This document shows, one piece after another, positions 11,473-33,059 of a stretch of 64,000 nucleotides of DNA. The position numbers were made by a program, and so were the translations under genes. Position 1 is the first letter of the stretch; the number at the start of each line of letters is the position of its first letter. Source of the stretch: a virus; IMG/VR virus record IMGVR_UViG_3300017991_000075, positions 1 through 64,000 of that record; one strand, written 5' to 3'. The notes beneath the pieces are model-generated. The model saw nothing but the letters and a program-made list of their open reading frames with translations. It searched no databases and was not told the DNA's origin.

Positions 11473-13041
11473 CTACCTCTTCTTGCGACGAATCGCTTTC
11501 TTGCTGCCAGCTTTCTTCCTGACAACTTTCTTCTTGGTAGAACGCTTCTTTGAAGCAGCCTTCTTGCGCGGCGTTTTCTTGGCTACCTTCTTACGAGCAG
11601 CCTTTTTCTTGCTAGTACGTCCCTTGGACGACTGGCGGCTGCTGGTATTGCTGCTGCGGCTGTTGCCCGACTTGTTGCCCGCCCGCCGCGTGGAGGTTGT
11701 CGGTGATGATTTTCCCAGGCGTGCGGCCTCCAACAATGCAGTGGTGTTCGCTTCAATCGCAGCAGTCAGACGATCAATCTGGTCTGGTGTGACCGAAGGC
11801 ACTAGAACACCCGCAACTTCCTGCAACTCTCCGATATCAACGGGCTCTGGAGGTGCCCCTGGAGGAGCCGCTTCCATCGGAGCGACCTGAACCTGATTCG
11901 CTGTTGTAGCAGTGTTAGGCCCAGGAGCCTCGATAGTGGTCGTTGACTGTGCAGGAGCTGCAGGAGGACCTGCGGCAACTACCTCATGATAACCATCAGG
12001 CATTGGTACTTCGGCAGGCCAGAACTCTGCCTTGATCTTGCTGGCGACTTTACCGCCATCGGTCATAACATCAGGGCCGCCCTCAGCGGGGATACGAGCT
12101 GCCTTACCAACAAGCTTCTTTTTGAATTCCTTATAGACGGCATCCGGATTCTTGGTGAGCTTCGGAGACCCAGCTTCCCATGAGCGTTTCTTGAATCCGC
12201 TGAGAGAGGTGTCTGACAATCCCTTCGGGCCATGCTTCCGTATCACGAGTACGAGAGCAGCAAGCTCCATTTCCTGTTCCTTGGTTGTTGAATCAAAGAA
12301 GTAGTGCTGAGAGCTGTAAGGGATGTTGACATCCGGACCAACCCACTTCTCCTTCACCCATTCCTCACTGCCAACCGCCTCAATTGCGGCTGTAGCTGCT
12401 GCCGGTGGAGCCGCAGGAGCTGCCGCCGCCGGAGCTGCCTGTTGCGGTACTGGTGGGGCAGCGGGCTGAGCAGGCGGTGTCGGTGCCGCTGCTTGAGGTG
12501 CGGGTGGAGCAGCCGGTGTAGCTGGGGGCACCGGAGCTGCCTGTGGTGCAGGTTGAGCTGCCGCCGGAAGTGCCCATTCAAGATTGGCATCTTGGAAGTG
12601 CTGCTTGATGAGCGAAGTCACCCCCTCGACAACACCTGGGATCTGAACGAACATCGCGTTTGCCTGATCATCTGTAGACGGTGCCTGAATCTGGAAGACT
12701 CGGCAGAACGTCGCGATAATAGCACACGCCTGAACATCAACACCTGATGCCGGATTGAACGGCGCAACAGCCCCCATATCTGCGGCTGACGCAGCATAAG
12801 CAGCCATCGTACCGTCAAGGTGCGCAACCTCGTTGTTGCTTGAAAGATGTGTAGCAACCTGTCCCGCGAACTGAACCGTACGATTACCGTTCGCATCAAC
12901 ATACTGGTTGATAACGGAAGCCATGCCTTCAATAGCATAGGCACACTGACGAAGCCAATCCACGATCTGTGGATTGTTCAACGCCTGGGACCAGCTCTCA
13001 ATGCCTCTGAGCTGGGAATAAATCTGAACAGTTGAACTCAT
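11473..13041 (-). CDS. Multidomain protein with Pro/Ala linkers and histone H1-like Lys-rich tail
   Basis: C-terminus KKKAARKKVAKKTPRKKAASKKRSTKKKVVRKKAGSKKAIRRKKR; GGAG RBS before ATG 13041. Confidence 0.75.
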   Translation of the reverse strand: MSSTVQIYSQLRGIESWSQALNNPQIVDWLRQCAYAIEGMASVINQYVDANGNRTVQFAGQVATHLSSNNEVAHLDGTMAAYAASAADMGAVAPFNPASGVDVQACAIIATFCRVFQIQAPSTDDQANAMFVQIPGVVEGVTSLIKQHFQDANLEWALPAAAQPAPQAAPVPPATPAAPPAPQAAAPTPPAQPAAPPVPQQAAPAAAAPAAPPAAATAAIEAVGSEEWVKEKWVGPDVNIPYSSQHYFFDSTTKEQEMELAALVLVIRKHGPKGLSDTSLSGFKKRSWEAGSPKLTKNPDAVYKEFKKKLVGKAARIPAEGGPDVMTDGGKVASKIKAEFWPAEVPMPDGYHEVVAAGPPAAPAQSTTTIEAPGPNTATTANQVQVAPMEAAPPGAPPEPVDIGELQEVAGVLVPSVTPDQIDRLTAAIEANTTALLEAARLGKSSPTTSTRRAGNKSGNSRSSNTSSRQSSKGRTSKKKAARKKVAKKTPRKKAASKKRSTKKKVVRKKAGSKKAIRRKKR

Positions 13042-13114: not shown

Positions 13115-13507
13115 CTAATCGAGCGGAAGATCAAATTCACCATCGGCAACCAGACCGACAGCGACTGTCACGACACCGTTGATACCGATGTCTTTGGGTC
13201 TCCTGTACTTTGAGACCTTACTCTTGAGAAGTTTCCACAACGCCCTGTTGATCTGCAACCTCTTTGCTGCATCAACCGTACTGATGCTCAGGTAGACGAA
13301 CTTCGCACTTGCTGGAACGATGTAAGTCCCGGTCGCCTCAGCGATCGCATCCTGGAACTCCTCGTCATTCATGATGACATCAAAAAGCGTCTCGTAGATA
13401 TACGTCAACCGAATATGTTTTGGCTGACGGTCCTTGAAACGCTCAAAGGTTTCAGCGTTCACCCGGTACGCCACGGACGCTGAACCTTTCTCCCTTACCT
13501 TCGGCAT
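13115..13507 (-). CDS. Putative tandem ribbon-helix-helix regulator
   Basis: Two beta-alpha-alpha-like units (SVAYRVNAETFERFK; KRLQINRALWKLLK); AAGGAG RBS before ATG 13507. Confidence 0.45.
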   Translation of the reverse strand: MPKVREKGSASVAYRVNAETFERFKDRQPKHIRLTYIYETLFDVIMNDEEFQDAIAEATGTYIVPASAKFVYLSISTVDAAKRLQINRALWKLLKSKVSKYRRPKDIGINGVVTVAVGLVADGEFDLPLD

Positions 13508-19072: not shown

Positions 19073-19350
19073 TAGATGTCAACCTCCCAACCTTCATCAA
19101 AATCGATGTCCGGGTGCAGGGCCTTCGCCAGTTTCGTAAGCTTATCCTCAATATTGTCAAGCCGCCTACGAATCTCGGTCAACGGGTCAACAGCTTCAGG
19201 GTTGTAAGGGTCGTTGCTTTCGACTTCACGAAGATCAACCATCCCACCACCGCCACACACGGGACAGATATGGATTATGTCATGGAACGCCGGACCACCC
19301 GGCATAGGTAACTTACCTGCGCCATCGCAGTTTTTACACATCACTTTCAT
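19072..19350 (-). CDS. Small protein with DnaJ-type CxxCxGxG zinc finger
   Basis: CKNCDGAG...CPVCGGGG; likely start MKVMC at 19350. Confidence 0.65.
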   Translation of the reverse strand: MKVMCKNCDGAGKLPMPGGPAFHDIIHICPVCGGGGMVDLREVESNDPYNPEAVDPLTEIRRRLDNIEDKLTKLAKALHPDIDFDEGWEVDI

Positions 19351-20506
19351 TGAACATCCTTTGCTGTCCGGGAGAATCCCAAACGAACTCAATCACTTCG
19401 AGTTCAAGCTCCTCAAGCCACTCAAGATACTCGGACGTTCCTACATCAGGACCATCGTAACGCTGGTATCCGTCCGTTGACCACTGAATCAGCGTTGGTT
19501 TCCACGGTGTGGCAGTCAGACCTGTAGACGGTACGAGTTCTCCAATCACCGTGCCTTGAGGCTGAAAATTCCAGTCAGTCCCGTAGCTGAAGCAATCATG
19601 TATTTTACTGATACCATAAGCAGCACCATGACCGCCGTCATCCCATAATTGTACGCGGTACGTTTGACGCTGCTCATCGTACTCAAAGTTCTTTCTCAGG
19701 TCCTCCCACGACTTAGGATAAAACTCGATCTCATCGCCGTAGTTATCGCAGCCTTTGTCCTTCAAGTATTGCTCGATCGGAAACCCCAAAGGAATCTCGA
19801 CGGTTATTCCCGGCAGATAACTTGAATAGAGCAGGTCTATGATCGCGCTCTCACCACTGCCATCACCCTGCCAGTTTTCGCCGTTATGCCACTCGCCTTC
19901 GGGGACACAACGGGCATCACCGCCACGATGAACCTGCACATAAGCCAGATAGCATTCACCGTATACGTAGTCTTCTGACGTTGACAACCACGTCATTTGA
20001 ATGTCGTGATTACCCGTGTAGCTGTCAGGATCGTTGTACGTGTATTCGGTGTGCCAAGCTACTCCGAACTTATCCGTGGTGGCGACAATCGCGGCACACA
20101 CCGCTTGAGCATACTGGAGTCCGTTTATGAATCTCGTGCTCTCGTAATATTCGGTATCGAGGTACTGCCAAAACCACGCCAAGTGTTCAGGTTCAATAGC
20201 TTCAAATTCAGCTTTGTACTTCTGCAACAGCTCTGTCAGCATGTTCTCATAATGCCCAGCACCATGAAACTCATCCCCTTCGTGAAACTTCACGATCGCC
20301 GGGAACAGCTTAGGCGTGACAGCACGCACCGCCTTTTCAATCTCACCATCATCGTCGTCAGGAACTCCACCGAGAAGTTTATGATCGACGTTAGCAACGG
20401 GAATTCCATCACAGATGTAGAGGAACTGTTCCTCTTCGAGAAGCTTACGAGCTTCCTCAGTTTTCGGTTCGACCACTTTCAGTTCAACCTGTTCTGTAGT
20501 CATCAT
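19334..20506 (-). CDS. Hypothetical highly acidic protein
   Basis: 390 aa, AAGGAG RBS. Confidence 0.75.
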   Translation of the reverse strand: MMTTEQVELKVVEPKTEEARKLLEEEQFLYICDGIPVANVDHKLLGGVPDDDDGEIEKAVRAVTPKLFPAIVKFHEGDEFHGAGHYENMLTELLQKYKAEFEAIEPEHLAWFWQYLDTEYYESTRFINGLQYAQAVCAAIVATTDKFGVAWHTEYTYNDPDSYTGNHDIQMTWLSTSEDYVYGECYLAYVQVHRGGDARCVPEGEWHNGENWQGDGSGESAIIDLLYSSYLPGITVEIPLGFPIEQYLKDKGCDNYGDEIEFYPKSWEDLRKNFEYDEQRQTYRVQLWDDGGHGAAYGISKIHDCFSYGTDWNFQPQGTVIGELVPSTGLTATPWKPTLIQWSTDGYQRYDGPDVGTSEYLEWLEELELEVIEFVWDSPGQQRMFNESDV

Positions 20507-20724: not shown

Positions 20725-21360
20725 CTAGTCATCATCAACCTCACTGGCCGCTTCAACTTCCTTTTCTTCTACCCATGAACCCCATGAGCACACCATGTAC
20801 TCTTCCTCTTCATGATCATACAACAACGTCGTGTCGTAAGTATCTCCGAGATTGACAAACGATGCTTTACCGTAATCCCATTCACCGTTGATACCAATCG
20901 ACTCAACGCCGTGTCCGCCGATGATCTCATTGGCGGCGCACATCACCAACTCTTCAGTCCACGGCTTGTTATAGCACTGCTTGATCCACGCTTTCGCCGA
21001 TGGAAACTCATCAGGTTCTAGGACATTTTCAATCAAGCATGCCAGCACGTAAGCGTGCCACGGCTCGACACCTTTGATGTCGAGGAGCTGTTCTTCAATA
21101 TCGCGTTCATCCTCTTCCATTTCATCTTCCTCTTCAGGTTCCTCTTCTTCAGGCTCGTTTGGATCAGGCCACCCGTTATAAGCAGCACAGCACGAATCAT
21201 CGCAGCACTCCTGATGCGGTGATTCTGGTCTGAACGTCCGCCCACACCACTTGCACTCGCGTGGTCTTCCCAGACCGTCAGCGTCCTTCCACGATTCAGG
21301 ACATCCTATTTCATGGCAGTAGACACCATTGATCATTGCAGCATTACATGAATCACACAT
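20725..21360 (-). CDS. Hypothetical protein with Cys-rich N-terminus and acidic linker
   Basis: MCDSC...CHEIGC...CKWC...CCDDSC; GGAG RBS. Confidence 0.7.
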   Translation of the reverse strand: MCDSCNAAMINGVYCHEIGCPESWKDADGLGRPRECKWCGRTFRPESPHQECCDDSCCAAYNGWPDPNEPEEEEPEEEDEMEEDERDIEEQLLDIKGVEPWHAYVLACLIENVLEPDEFPSAKAWIKQCYNKPWTEELVMCAANEIIGGHGVESIGINGEWDYGKASFVNLGDTYDTTLLYDHEEEEYMVCSWGSWVEEKEVEAASEVDDD

Positions 21361-24717: not shown

Positions 24718-25043
24718 TAGGGTCCTCCTGTCTTTTCGCGTTCACGCAAGCGATACCAGTAAAGCTCATCGCTTGAACAAATCTCAACAGTAACAAGACC
24801 GGCGCTGTACATTACGAACGCATACTCATCCGGATTTACCCAAACCGTATGAGACGTATCCCAACGCCAGTCCTGTCGTTCTATAAAGCCCGCAGGCAAC
24901 TCTCTAAACATTTCCTCCCGTGTATGATAACGACGCGGCCCTGAAAGGTGCGTCGTGATTGTTCCAGTCGGAGTCTTGCGTGTGAGAACTCCGTTGCAGT
25001 GCTTCTCGATGAAGCTATCGAATTCCGGCGTCAATCGCGGCAT
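24717..25043 (-). CDS. Hypothetical protein
   Basis: About 108 aa; likely start MPRLT. Confidence 0.6.
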   Translation of the reverse strand: MPRLTPEFDSFIEKHCNGVLTRKTPTGTITTHLSGPRRYHTREEMFRELPAGFIERQDWRWDTSHTVWVNPDEYAFVMYSAGLVTVEICSSDELYWYRLREREKTGGP

Positions 25044-25302
25044 CCTTAGCAACCCATTCCCTCAACTGCCGGACTTCACGCTTGGCTTTATCGGCCTTGC
25101 GCTGCTCACGAAGCTCGATTGCAACCCGTGCAGCCTTTTCATAGGGAACGCCAGTAACACGTTCCGTAAGCAATCCGGTGCCCTTAGCGAGATCACGCAA
25201 ACGGCGATTACTCATGTTGTTACGCAGGAACAGCTTTGCGAGAACATCAATCTGGTCAATGTTTTCTACCAGTGCCCTCACGAGTGTGTGCATCTTAGCC
25301 AT
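25015..25302 (-). CDS. Hypothetical basic protein, first gene of the early operon
   Basis: 95 aa, GAAAGG RBS. Confidence 0.6.
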   Translation of the reverse strand: MAKMHTLVRALVENIDQIDVLAKLFLRNNMSNRRLRDLAKGTGLLTERVTGVPYEKAARVAIELREQRKADKAKREVRQLREWVAKDAAIDAGIR

Positions 25303-25329
25303 GATTCAAACCTTTCTTGTTAGAACAAA

Positions 25330-25860
25330 AACACTTGGTTTATTAGTCAGGACTGCCCCGACTTCCTTATCGTCCGCAGGTACGGGCGATAAGAGAGTCG
25401 GGGCACTGTGTCTACACAGTGCCCCTCTCACGGATTGCTTTCCGTTCAACACAGTTTTTGATTGTGGTTATATTACTTCCACGCTCTTAGCGTTCAGTTC
25501 CTCATCGTACTAGGTTCACCGTATAACCGCGTCTGAGTCTTCACATTCATTACCTTGGGCGTACTCTGGACCCTCCGTAATATAGCTCGCTGATTCCCCG
25601 TCTCCCATAAGGGGCAAGCTGGTCACACTATCCACGCTGCACTTCTAACAGCGCAACGCTTTTTAGGAATCCGTTTTCATGCCTCTAAGAGTCCGTCCTG
25701 AACGAATCAGCGATACCTCTATAGCGCATTTTCACAAATTTTGATTAGAACCGCGTACCTACACTGTACGGTATACCGTTCCGATGTCTGTCACCAGCAA
25801 CACGGAACCATGATTATTAGAGAGTATTTCCCTAACACGATACGCATTATCTAAAGGAGT
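25330..25860 (-). ncRNA. Candidate large structured non-coding RNA or leader
   Basis: About 530 nt with no credible ORF, dense in hairpins, plus a long-range 10-bp helix (25587-25596 with 25704-25713); TTGACA lies upstream at 25881-25886 on the minus strand. Confidence 0.4.
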
Positions 25861-26082
25861 TTTGCGTAAACGGATGATGATGTCAAATAGCGTAGACATA
25901 CCGCGACTAGCGATTATGACGTCTCCTTATACGTACTACGTCACAAACGTTTTTACGTTATGTCCGCAACAATCCGCGCAACATTTCCGCAATCGTACTA
26001 TGTTGCGCACAACCCGAAATATGTGGCGGGTTGTGTCCGTTACGGGTTGTTACTTGCTATAATTGCCAAAAAACGGAGTGTA

Positions 26083-26158
26083 AACGGTTTTACCGTTACT
26101 TATGCCCCTTGAACGTTCAAGGGGCATAAGTAACGGCACTACAAATTGTAGTGCCGTT
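26083..26158. repeat. Perfect 44-bp palindrome (26093-26136) chained to two overlapping inverted repeats
   Basis: CCGTTACTTATGCCCCTTGAAC|GTTCAAGGGGCATAAGTAACGG; AACGGCACTACAA-A-TTGTAGTGCCGTT (26132-26158); AACGG-TTTTA-CCGTT (26083-26097). Confidence 0.95.
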
Positions 26159-26185
26159 TCAAGGTTTCCGGGTTGTGTTCGTTGC

Positions 26186-26674
26186 TTATGCCTTATTGAA
26201 AGCATCCGCTATCGCGTCCGTTACTGCCGTTTTTACGGCATCCGCTATAGCGTCCGCGATCGGTAGCATTGCAGAAGCTTCTGCCGTTGCTTCCTTAGTT
26301 GCTTCCTTGGTTGCTTCCTTGGTTGCTTCCTTGGTTGCTTCCTTGGTTGCCTTGCGTTTCGGTGCAAACGTTTCAAGCTTCATTCTGCTATGCGTTACTG
26401 TCAATCCCGCGAAACGTTTTGTTAGTCCAGAAACACGGGTTTTCGCTTCCTTCATCGCTTCCCGTAACGCGGTTTTCGGCAGTCCCGTTAGTGGGAGAAA
26501 ACAAGCTTTCCGCGTTTCCGTATTGCGTTTTGCCTTCGTTGCTCTGAATCCCCAAGCTTGCAAAGTGTTCGTTACTGCTTGGCGTAGTTCGTTGCTTTCC
26601 GATTGAACAAAACACCACAAAAAAGCACGTTCAACAATCGTAGTAACCTTGATACGAGTAACCTTGTTAGCCAT
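26186..26674 (-). CDS. Basic protein with (ATKE)5 repeat; isolated gene with its own promoter
   Basis: 162 aa, AGGAG RBS, strong promoter upstream, hairpins downstream. Confidence 0.7.
   Translation of the reverse strand: MANKVTRIKVTTIVERAFLWCFVQSESNELRQAVTNTLQAWGFRATKAKRNTETRKACFLPLTGLPKTALREAMKEAKTRVSGLTKRFAGLTVTHSRMKLETFAPKRKATKEATKEATKEATKEATKEATAEASAMLPIADAIADAVKTAVTDAIADAFNKA
26286..26350 (-). repeat. 12-bp tandem repeat x5 (GTTGCTTCCTTR)
   Basis: Directly visible; encodes KEAT repeats. Confidence 0.9.
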
Positions 26675-30866: not shown

Positions 30867-30933
30867 AAGATACTTTGACACGATAACATGTCAAGAATTT
30901 TTCTGTTGACAGGCCCCGATTTCGTTCTACCTT
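30867..30933. promoter_or_regulatory. Back-to-back promoters: leftward TTGACA-N16-TATCTT (30894-30867), rightward TTGACA-N16-TACCTT (30906-30933)
   Basis: Perfect -35 boxes at the strand switch; an inverted TTGACA-N8-TGTCAA (30875-30894) overlaps the leftward one. Confidence 0.7.
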
Positions 30934-31072
30934 TAGTGCAGCTACAGTGCTGCAGTGTACGAGGTTTTTTGATTGAACAGAATTCGGTCGCCCCATCCCT
31001 CGAAGCACTGTAGCTAGTCCTTCCTTGAGCCTCGGCACAAGAGGATGGGGTGGCCTCCGTGACAGGGCCGGG

Positions 31073-31438
31073 ATGCAGTACGACTCTGCGAGTAATGTAC
31101 CGTCAGGACCTCGGACATATTTTCCGAAGGAGATCCCGGCCCATTGTCACATACCTCAATACATCCTCCAGGATCAACGTCTAACTGATTTCGAAAAAAT
31201 CCTATTCGGAAGACTCCGAGGATACGCTGGCGAAAAGCATTACTGCTTCGTCAAAGTCACGACCCTGATGGAGGAACTCTGCAAGTCAAGACGAGTCATC
31301 TATCGTGCGGTCGAATCGCTCGTAAAATTCGGCTACCTTTATAAATACCGCGCACACCCTCGTGCAACTACCAACTACTATTTCATCATCACACCGGAGA
31401 TAGACCTCTGGTTGAATGCAACGTCAAAAAGGGTTTGA
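31073..31438 (+). CDS. Winged-HTH (HTH_36-like) replication initiator/origin-binding protein
   Basis: IPQYILQDQRLTDFEKILFGRL...CFVKVTTLMEELCKSRRVIYRAVESLVKFGYL...TNYY; iterons follow immediately. Confidence 0.75.
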   Translation: MQYDSASNVPSGPRTYFPKEIPAHCHIPQYILQDQRLTDFEKILFGRLRGYAGEKHYCFVKVTTLMEELCKSRRVIYRAVESLVKFGYLYKYRAHPRATTNYYFIITPEIDLWLNATSKRV

Positions 31439-31660
31439 GGTGCCAAAAATGACACCCTTACAAATGCTCTCATCGCAATTTGAGGTGCCAAAAATGGCAC
31501 CTGCCCTTGTGCCAAAAATGGCACCTGTTAGTGTCAAAAATGGCACCTCAAAAGTGTCAAAAATGGCACCTCCTAAAACAAGGACTTATAAACAGGGATT
31601 TCAAACAGGGAGTCTTTTATTCTAAAGAATAAAAGAGCAGCTCGCCTTGCGGCTCGCTGT
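31439..31660. other. Putative replication origin: 5 palindromic iterons GTGYCAAAAATGRCACC plus an AT-rich palindrome
   Basis: Units start at 31440, 31485, 31509, 31531, 31554; TCTTTTATTCT-AA-AGAATAAAAGA at 31613-31636; small GC hairpin after it. Confidence 0.7.
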
Positions 31661-31682: not shown

Positions 31683-33059
31683 ATGAGAGAGACGATCAAA
31701 ATAATCGAACACGGTCCCGTCACAAGAATCGTTCTTCCTGTGTCGGCATCCATCTATGACCGCTCCTCAATTTCCCTGGCGGCTAAACAAGCTGTCACCG
31801 CATGGAACAACGAAGGACGTGCGTTCGATTATTTCGACTCGATGAACATGACGCTGCTACGCGGACATACTCCTCGTGTAGTTCGTGCGTTAGAAGCACA
31901 CGGCTACAGCGTGTCATGGGAGATGACGACGCCGGCCCAGGAGAAGTTCATCTTCGGAGATCCGGTTGGCGAGTTACGGAATCTCCAGGAGTGGGGTGTG
32001 GGTGAAATGCTGAAGCACTACTACGGCATCATCTCTTTCGGGTGTCGTTTCGGTAAGAGCTACACCTACGCCGGGTGGTGGTGCGCTCGTGGTAGGCCCA
32101 GGACGATTATCTTCGCGCACACCGAGAAGATCTGCTCGCAGATGCATGAGGAGCTTTCGGAATGGCTCGGTGAGCCTGTGGGGGTTGTTGCACGGACTAC
32201 GGGGATCAAGGACAACTGGCAAAGACTTACCATCGCATGCGACAAATCATTTTTTGACAAAGAGCGCCAGCTCCTTCCGGACCACAAACCGTATCTGCTG
32301 AACACCGAAGCGATCATCCGTGATGAGTGCCACCAGTTCGGAGAACTCGGCGGTCTGATTTACGACCACTGTCCGAATCTGATTTACTCGTGGGGAGGTT
32401 CGGCAACTCCGTTCAAGAAACAGCCTGAAAAGGATCTTCTCATCGAAGGGTACTGCGGGCCGCTACGGGCCGAAGCCCCGGCAAAGATTTTAGCCGACCA
32501 CGGAATCGTGGCAATGCTTGTATGTCGGTGGAAACGAATATACCATCGGCCGATCATATGGGACACCTGGAACGTGTTGCGTGATAACGCGATCGTACAC
32601 AACTTCGAACGCAACAATGAGATCGCGAAGATATGCCATCACCACCGCGACCAGGGGCTGCGTGGGATCGTATTCGTCGATCGCGTGCCCCACGGGCAAA
32701 ACCTGGAGGCTTTACTGCCTGGCTCGGTGTTCGTAAGTTCGACGACAATGAGTAAGGCACAACGGGACGACTCTCTCAAAAAATTCAATCGCGGAGAGCT
32801 GCATACTGTTGTGACTACAAAAGTTTGGCGAGAAGGAGTCACGTTTTACGCGGACTATGCAATCAACGCAGAAGGTGGTCGAGCCGATCATGTCAACATA
32901 CAAAAAGCGGGGCGTCCATTGATGCCACGGACTGACGGAACCGCTGTTGCTTGGTATGACTTCATCGATCACGGGATCGATAAGCTGTACGATCACTCAG
33001 TAGACCGATATGACTGCATGACAAACGAGGGCTGGGAACAGGAGATACTCGATGGCTAA
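31683..33059 (+). CDS. Superfamily 2 helicase (UvsW/XPB-like)
   Basis: CRFGKS, IIRDECH, GGSATP, IVFVDRV, WREG, IQKAGR. Confidence 0.85.
   Translation: MRETIKIIEHGPVTRIVLPVSASIYDRSSISLAAKQAVTAWNNEGRAFDYFDSMNMTLLRGHTPRVVRALEAHGYSVSWEMTTPAQEKFIFGDPVGELRNLQEWGVGEMLKHYYGIISFGCRFGKSYTYAGWWCARGRPRTIIFAHTEKICSQMHEELSEWLGEPVGVVARTTGIKDNWQRLTIACDKSFFDKERQLLPDHKPYLLNTEAIIRDECHQFGELGGLIYDHCPNLIYSWGGSATPFKKQPEKDLLIEGYCGPLRAEAPAKILADHGIVAMLVCRWKRIYHRPIIWDTWNVLRDNAIVHNFERNNEIAKICHHHRDQGLRGIVFVDRVPHGQNLEALLPGSVFVSSTTMSKAQRDDSLKKFNRGELHTVVTTKVWREGVTFYADYAINAEGGRADHVNIQKAGRPLMPRTDGTAVAWYDFIDHGIDKLYDHSVDRYDCMTNEGWEQEILDG

Follow-up and report, generated by a model that had tools for sequence, protein, structure and literature searches.

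The intergenic gap at positions 25303-26185, which is 883 nt long and located between the minus-strand genes 26186-26674 and 25015-25302, raises the question of what a phage maintains in a stretch of its genome that is largely devoid of open reading frames (ORFs). For positions 25330-25860 within this gap, a sequence-only reading had proposed a new large structured non-coding RNA (ncRNA), or a processive antiterminator, at the head of an early operon.

The gap and its phage context

The window, i.e., the whole stretch of DNA that was analysed, comprises the first 64 kb of a 99,054-base IMG/VR virus contig that is classed as linear and about 82% complete. Its source is a tailed phage, encoding a tape measure protein of 3166 aa, a family A DNA polymerase, a DnaB-like helicase together with a primase, and a sigma-70 region-2 protein. 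N4-like hairpin promoters were considered for the gap and discarded, given that the 3166-aa protein is a tape measure protein and not a virion RNA polymerase. Close cultured relatives were sought by blastn of the region against GenBank phages, yielding no match, and by tblastn with the primase, yielding only matches at ≤28% identity.

The minus strand carries genes from about 30881 down to the window start. The RNA discussed here occupies a fixed position in the transcription programme, between the helicase-primase operon and the next gene block, with the primase and helicase genes about 1 kb upstream. Scored in any frame at thresholds of 50 and 70 aa, an ORF-free run including 25514-25861 (or 25514-26150) is the longest in the whole 99,054-base contig, so that the earlier claim of the longest ORF-free stretch is borne out at both thresholds. 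The two flanking genes are the following:

26186-26674, minus strand: upstream gene, 162 aa, with conserved synteny with the RNA
25015-25302, minus strand: first downstream gene, 95 aa, with the ribosome-binding site GAAAGG preceding the start codon (25302)

For the 95-aa downstream protein, no homologue was found in the related phages described below nor in 5.8 billion proteins. Downstream of the RNA, only one intergenic terminator-like site was seen (20563-20538). This minus-strand hairpin lies in a 218-nt gap between the genes 20725-21360 and 19334-20506 and could end the RNA-headed gene block, which would then measure about 4.7 kb rather than the 11 kb assumed before. Near the upstream limit of the minus-strand genes, back-to-back sigma-70-like promoters are present at 30867-30935, with TTGACA as the -35 element and an unusual -10 hexamer in each direction, TATCTT for the leftward and TACCTT for the rightward promoter. 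Further on, at 31430-31575 and just upstream of a helicase-like gene at 31683, five or six direct copies of a unit of about 17 nt (GGTGCCAAAAATGNCAC; variants GTGTCAAAAATGGCAC) resemble the iterons of replication origins.

Comparative evidence for a structured RNA

For the primase, five relatives with 46-56% identity were found, and an alignment of primase relatives used as a query led to three independent phage contigs: L008 (77 kb, equivalent to L035, L036, and L055; primase 51% identical), L034 (13.9 kb; primase 56% identical), and L009 (94 kb; primase 40% identical). The last of these ends 200 nt past the primase, and its 94 kb gave no match to covariance model R1. In L008 and L034, the gene order is that of the window—primase, small genes, a weak homologue of the 162-aa protein, and a non-coding stretch—and the homologous non-coding stretch lies directly downstream of the same small gene. 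With nhmmer, the window gap aligned with L008 at an E-value of 3.6e-6 (positions 12-665) and with its near-identical copy L035 at 3.5e-6, while the genes past the gap show no detectable relation between the window and the relatives. Since the primases are merely 51-56% identical and the downstream genes are not detectably related, neutral DNA should not align here; conservation is, thus, higher in the RNA region than in the adjoining protein genes.

Additional homologues were found neither in IMG/VR, nor in 185,579 GTDB genomes, nor in a JGI metagenome scan, and the flanking proteins, used as queries in IMG/VR, returned no usable homologues. With the best conserved island as an exact pattern, IMG/VR yielded four matches, including the known L055, the remainder of which looked like chance matches in coding sequence; a second search of this kind gave 34 matches, none of which (0/34) matched the gap in nhmmer. 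In GTDB, the stricter pattern gave 0 matches and the looser one 83, at chance level and in coding sequence. In the collections covered, the RNA family comprises three sequences (window, L008, and L034), which are too few for R-scape-grade statistics.

A protein-coding gene or small ORF was rejected as the conserved feature because frame-specific similarity is absent and no open frame is conserved in the relatives. Translated similarity among the three gaps occurs in several frames and on both strands, and only around the nucleotide island. There, a 39-aa ORF (25516-25635) looked conserved in comparison with L008, but is interrupted by in-frame TAA codons in L034, and a 46-aa ORF at 25759-25899 falls in a different frame in L008.

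The earlier reading had noted no tRNA, tmRNA, RNase P, hammerhead, or group I signature, and this holds. Rfam 15 covariance models, among them those for ROOL, GOLLD, riboswitches, ribozymes, RNase P, group I and II introns, and tmRNA, gave 0 matches at the gathering threshold over the 64-kb window; even at E≤10, nothing was detected in 25300-25900 nor in the cores of the two homologues. ARAGORN reported 0 tRNA or tmRNA genes in the window. In the homologous regions, Rfam returned only spurious matches of the miRNA and leader type, located on the upstream terminator palindromes. Matching no Rfam family, the RNA would represent a previously undescribed family.

Compensatory changes delimit a core of about 340 nt (25862-25520), which is followed by two conserved 3' hairpins; the extent of 530 nt that had been proposed is not established. 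The core is built of a 5' multi-helix domain, a long-range helix enclosing a variable central domain, and a pseudoknot domain, with the following elements:

25716-25862, minus strand: 5' multi-helix domain, with closing helices round a junction with hairpin H1 and a GUGA-capped hairpin
25817-25835, minus strand: hairpin H1, UUAGGGA/UCUCUAA with a 5-nt loop
25778-25808, minus strand: GUGA-capped hairpin (GUUCCG...CGGAAC), GNRA-type tetraloop at 25794-25791
25713-25704 / 25596-25587, minus strand: long-range helix UCGCUGAUUC/GAAUCAGCGA, a 10-bp perfect inverted repeat
25597-25703, minus strand: variable central domain, enclosed by the long-range helix
25614-25596, minus strand: small hairpin Hp, beside the 3' strand of the long-range helix
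25534-25582, minus strand: pseudoknot domain (H-type), present in all three sequences
25582-25577 / 25553-25548, minus strand: pseudoknot outer helix
25573-25569 / 25561-25557, minus strand: pseudoknot inner helix
25567-25563 with 25538-25534, minus strand: pseudoknot loop-to-3' pairing, spanning a purine-rich linker of 10-11 nt

The pseudoknot domain is the best conserved island, with 19 of 22 positions identical to L008. Its outer helix reads AUUAC/GUAAU in the window, ACCGU/GCGGU in L008, and ACCGC/GCGGU in L034, and its inner helix GGGUC..CGCCC, GGGUG..CGCCC, and AGGUG..CGCCU, respectively. The loop, of 7 nt, is paired to a strand located 20 nt further downstream (GAGU/ACUC in the window, GGAGU/ACUCC in L008, GAAGU/ACUUC in L034), a G-C pair of this loop-to-3'-strand pairing being replaced by A-U in L034. 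Two U-G pairs of the domain are invariant. In the MAFFT alignment A4 (n=3), 16 pairs are 95.8% paired and five of them are changed on both sides, a number of double-sided changes that was matched by 2/500 shuffles; in controls with the partners slid by 1-3 columns, 31-52% remained paired, with 0-1 double-sided changes. A homemade structure-aware pairwise alignment (SCI 0.37) was too rough for use.

Further upstream in the core, the unconstrained minimum free energy (MFE) structure of the 147-nt 5' piece includes both H1 and the GUGA-capped hairpin. A covariance model (R2) made from the window sequence and its MFE structure alone found, in a search of 93.5 kb, a sole non-self match in L008 at 12239-12354, i.e., at the syntenic site, with an E-value of 0.11. 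In the resulting alignment of window and L008 (n=2), 94% of the cells are paired and 15/46 pairs are changed on both sides, compared to 35-49% in slid controls; because the covariance model itself imposed the structure on this alignment, these figures are somewhat inflated. With R2, the 5' domain was not detected in L034. H1 is UUUCGGC/GCCGGGA in L008, where 7 bp and the 5-nt loop are kept and three pairs are changed on both sides. Of the second hairpin, the GUGA cap is kept while the stems differ, with CUG-GUGA-CAG on UGU/ACA in the window versus CUA-GUGA-UAG on CAU/AUG in L008; L034 carries a GUGA-containing loop on an unrelated ACACG/CGUGU stem (13346-13364) in a different place of the RNA. 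The 8-mer TGTAGGTA is common to window positions 25763-25756, inside the 5' domain, and L008 12041-12048.

The long-range helix had been described before and is present, enclosing 107 nt, and it also appears in the MFE structure of the isolated 145-nt piece. Its counterparts, at comparable positions but of uncertain register, are GAUUUC/GGAAUC in L008, enclosing 66 nt, and CGCUC/GAGCG in L034, enclosing 113 nt. A window-only model of the central domain (R3) found nothing significant in L008 or L034. The stem of Hp is CCCC/GGGG in the window, CCUG/CAGG in L008, and CAUC/GAUG in L034, and is paired at 4/4 positions in each. The remaining hairpins listed earlier for the minus strand (CGUAC/GUACG, GCGCUG/CAGCGU, ACGCU/AGCGU, and ACGGA/UCCGU) were also confirmed, every one on that list being present.

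Folding energy is less informative. For the minus strand of 25330-25860 (531 nt), it amounts to -176.8 kcal/mol (z -3.8; 0/100 shuffles as good). The core 25500-25860 alone, however, reaches a z-score of only -1.3 and, over the three sequences, the cores (-1.3, -1.8, -0.5) are not better than shuffles; most of the energy signal is held by the tandem hairpins at the 3' end (25340-25470, 131 nt, z -7.2). Energy alone cannot choose the strand either, because the plus strand scores -4.4 compared to -3.8 for the minus strand. With both strands scoring and the signal coming mainly from the two 3' hairpins, folding energy neither makes nor breaks the RNA case, which is founded on conservation and compensatory changes in two distant relatives. 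As for the strand, the gene-sense (minus) strand is favoured by the invariant G-U pairs and by the consensus energies, which are -30.9 kcal/mol in sense versus -11.0 kcal/mol in antisense for A7 and -16.3 versus -11.1 kcal/mol for A4.

Double-sided changes in diverged genomes, the mark of a conserved structured RNA, were found among n=3 and n=2 sequences, and we conclude from this comparison that the gap very probably encodes a real, conserved structured RNA. Of the proposal of a new large structured RNA, the compensatory changes and the lack of an Rfam match uphold the novelty and the structure, over at least about 340 nt.

Two rival explanations have to be weighed here. According to the first, the gap would serve only as promoter, operator, and terminator, its hairpins being due to chance, or be what is left of a decayed gene or of short peptide genes. 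The core energies at shuffle level would fit this, as would the small ORFs of 37-48 aa in the gap and the presence of a TTGACA box and operator-like repeats. However, chance hairpins would hardly account for 5 + 15 compensatory pairs with low slid controls, nor for a window-only model that retrieves the syntenic L008 site as its sole match; a gene remnant is at odds with similarity that is independent of the reading frame and with candidate ORFs that lie in other frames in L008 or are interrupted in L034. We regard this explanation as most unlikely. The second places the function in the DNA, with hairpins in single-stranded DNA that signal priming or primosome assembly or belong to an origin, or with the islands being protein-binding sites. 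It draws on the proximity of the primase and helicase genes, which lie about 1 kb upstream of the element, on both strands folding better than shuffles, and on TTGCG-type repeats and inverted repeats just upstream; nonetheless, it is very unlikely. Invariant U-G pairs, a GNRA tetraloop, and a loop-to-3' pseudoknot over a purine-rich linker are features of RNA, the antisense strand performs much worse in consensus folding, and duplex protein-binding sites are not expected to show double-sided compensatory changes. An origin of replication, in particular, was rejected for the gap, as the clear iteron array 5.5 kb away (about 31430-31575) is the better candidate.

Flanking signals and the mode of action

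Two very stable hairpins (25425-25354) come about 95 nt past the core, some 50 nt ahead of the first gene's ribosome-binding site:

25400-25425, minus strand: hairpin A, terminator-like, 12 bp with the GC-rich base GGGGCAC/GUGCCCC
25354-25405, minus strand: hairpin B, 23-nt arms that are 87% complementary, overlapping hairpin A by 6 nt

For UGCCCC, hairpin A has a competitor in the outer 6 nt of hairpin B. Hairpin A of the window, with a U-poor tail and no U-tract, is not called by the terminator scan. Its counterpart in L008 (12606-12629), a 10-bp stem followed by TTCTTTCG, is called terminator-like. The same two-hairpin arrangement is present in L008 (12624-12671; z -4.05), where the architecture of the A/B pair is conserved but not its sequence; the L034 contig ends before this position.

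Upstream of the core, the start site should lie beyond about 25859, because the compensatory helices begin there. In this region, one short element stands out:

25879-25887, minus strand: conserved box TTTGACATC, just upstream of the RNA core

The box is possibly a -35-like element or a protein site; its relative position is shared by a copy in L008 (12213), and L034 has two copies (12948, 13187). A 17-nt spacer past it reaches only a poor -10 element (AAAACT, 9/12) and, as a promoter motif, the box is not repeated elsewhere in the genome; a conserved sigma-70-like promoter for the RNA was not found. Seen more broadly, a TWTTTGAMATC-like box is present in two copies per genome, 180-240 nt apart and both upstream of the RNA core (window 26066-26071, TTGGCA, and 25879-25887; L008 about 12012 and 12213; L034 12948 and 13187). 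A spacer of 17 nt and TACCTG follow the first copy in L008 alone; this hexamer is similar to the -10 element TAYCTT of the divergent promoters in the window. At 25960-26011, in the interval that separates the RNA core from the upstream terminators, TTGCGG/TTGCGC repeats are clustered together with inverted copies (GCGCAACAT / ATGTTGCGC, TGTCCGCAACA / TGTTGCGCACA). The cluster resembles an operator array and may contain the promoter of the RNA. The segment 26083-26164, past the 162-aa gene, includes a perfect palindrome of 44 bp (26093-26136) to which an inverted repeat of 13 bp and a run of T are joined, and these are probably the terminators of the helicase-primase operon; large palindromes are located at the same place in L034 and L008.

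The placement of the RNA is that of a leader, with strong terminator palindromes upstream and hairpins A and B, a ribosome-binding site, and a start codon downstream. We propose that the RNA would be the 5' leader of the leftward operon and act in cis. By itself or in complex with a protein of the phage or its host, the folded core would set whether the polymerase or the transcript passes hairpin A into the genes beyond, the outcome at this hairpin being antitermination or attenuation in a broad sense. We infer this mechanism tentatively, and for the statement as a whole—a structured RNA family together with the cis-leader mechanism—a probability of roughly 0.4 seems appropriate. Several observations speak against it: conservation is lacking in the central domain, the search for a promoter gave no convincing candidate, hairpin A in the window has no U-tract, and known cis-acting antiterminator RNAs are far simpler than a core of 340 nt that includes a pseudoknot and a GNRA loop. 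Neither does anti-terminator pairing exceed shuffle level, the best duplexes (-15.0 and -10.7 kcal/mol) being equalled by 37/200 and 137/200 shuffles, respectively. An attenuator or riboswitch expression platform was rejected on the same account, with no pairing of a terminator arm better than chance. Of the processive antiterminator envisaged in the sequence-only reading, there remains a terminator-like hairpin following the RNA, clear in L008, whereas put- or nut-like features and a significant anti-terminator pairing were not found.

Alternatively, the RNA could be a free-standing, trans-acting ncRNA that ends at hairpin A and works as a ribonucleoprotein (RNP) or ribozyme, possibly together with the small protein encoded upstream. 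A multi-way junction, a GNRA tetraloop, a pseudoknot, and a long-range helix are typical of large stand-alone RNAs, and hairpin A is a good intrinsic terminator in L008; lacking a U-tract in the window, however, it would let many transcripts continue into the operon. The 162-aa gene is conserved in the three phages whereas the downstream genes are not, and its protein family is as rare as the RNA: weak homologues are encoded directly upstream of the RNA in L008 (11455-11922) and L034 (12308-12781), and a profile search of 1.84 billion representatives returned only two proteins. This family has a conserved N-terminal region of about 60 aa (W, F, KR..T.TRKA.F) and a Lys/Ala/Thr-rich tail, with ATKE repeats in the window member. 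On the other hand, nothing links the protein to RNA binding, with no Pfam or PHROG matches, a low-confidence model (pLDDT 56) of predicted strand-strand-helix, strand-strand-helix topology, and only weak look-alikes in the Atlas (TM ≤0.44); moreover, strong terminators separate the protein gene from the RNA. Taken for itself, a free-standing ncRNA is rather doubtful, if nearly as likely as a cis leader.

Relation to known RNAs and significance

The cis-leader reading invites comparison with several known systems. The put RNAs of the lambdoid phage HK022 are cis-acting processive antiterminators of about 70 nt, composed of two stem-loops without a pseudoknot. Like put, the RNA described here would, on the cis-leader reading, belong to the leader of a long operon, with a promoter region on one side and a terminator-like hairpin on the other, and act on the polymerase making it; unlike put, its core of about 340 nt contains a multi-way junction, a GNRA loop, and a pseudoknot, and no likeness in sequence or structure could be shown. 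The nut site of phage lambda consists of a short boxA and a 15-nt boxB hairpin and functions with the N protein, while the 6S leader at pR' works with Q. Common to these and the present locus is a leader RNA followed by a terminator, heading a phage operon, with a small phage protein nearby. A lambda-type nut site was, nevertheless, rejected: in place of a conserved boxA of consensus CGCUCUUA with a boxB, the window holds only the weak boxA look-alike ACUCUUAG (25693-25686), which is lost in L008, where UCUCUAG is found instead, and which in L034 occurs as an 8-mer at a non-homologous place. Unlike N, the 162-aa upstream protein is predicted to be folded.

A folded domain upstream of a terminator-like hairpin and a gene is also reminiscent of riboswitch and T-box leaders; these differ from the RNA of the window, for which neither a known Rfam aptamer nor a significant alternative pairing of the anti-terminator type was found. 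Furthermore, its downstream genes vary among the relatives, in contrast to a metabolite-sensing switch linked to one pathway. The leader pseudoknot of T4 gene 32 is a small translational operator that nucleates binding of the gene's own product. Here, too, an H-type pseudoknot would be part of a phage gene's 5' leader, but the RNA around it is much larger, the pseudoknot forming a single domain at a distance of 230 nt from the start codon, and the gene that follows does not encode a single-stranded DNA-binding protein.

With regard to elaboration, the RNA resembles ROOL and GOLLD. These large ornate RNAs are frequent in phages and prophages, constitute Rfam families, and have been studied by cryo-EM (bioRxiv 10.1101/2024.12.08.627333). 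Similar to them, the window RNA is a large structured phage ncRNA with a pseudoknot and conserved loops; by contrast, it is smaller, known from three sequences, and fixed in a leader position, and neither covariance model matches any of the three homologues, even at E≤10. Large screens for viral structured RNAs exist, including candidates for phage cis-regulation (PMC10690425). In summary, the position of the RNA resembles that of HK022 put, lambda nut/N, and the pR' leader, and its elaboration that of ROOL and GOLLD, while no membership test assigned it to any of them.

The present value of the finding is limited by a family of three sequences. Within this family, the RNA is better kept than the surrounding protein genes, in a phage lineage without cultured relatives. 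To our knowledge, large structured RNAs of unknown function are rare, with several of them being carried by phages, and each new class of large RNA has tended to uncover new biochemistry. A new class of large, tertiary-folded phage RNA—be it an antitermination device larger than put, or a stand-alone RNP or ribozyme with the upstream protein—is conceivable, though we would not count on it. Should the RNA govern read-through, phages would offer a second case of transcription control by RNA only, and a much more elaborate one; if the RNA acts in trans, it would constitute a new class of ncRNA.
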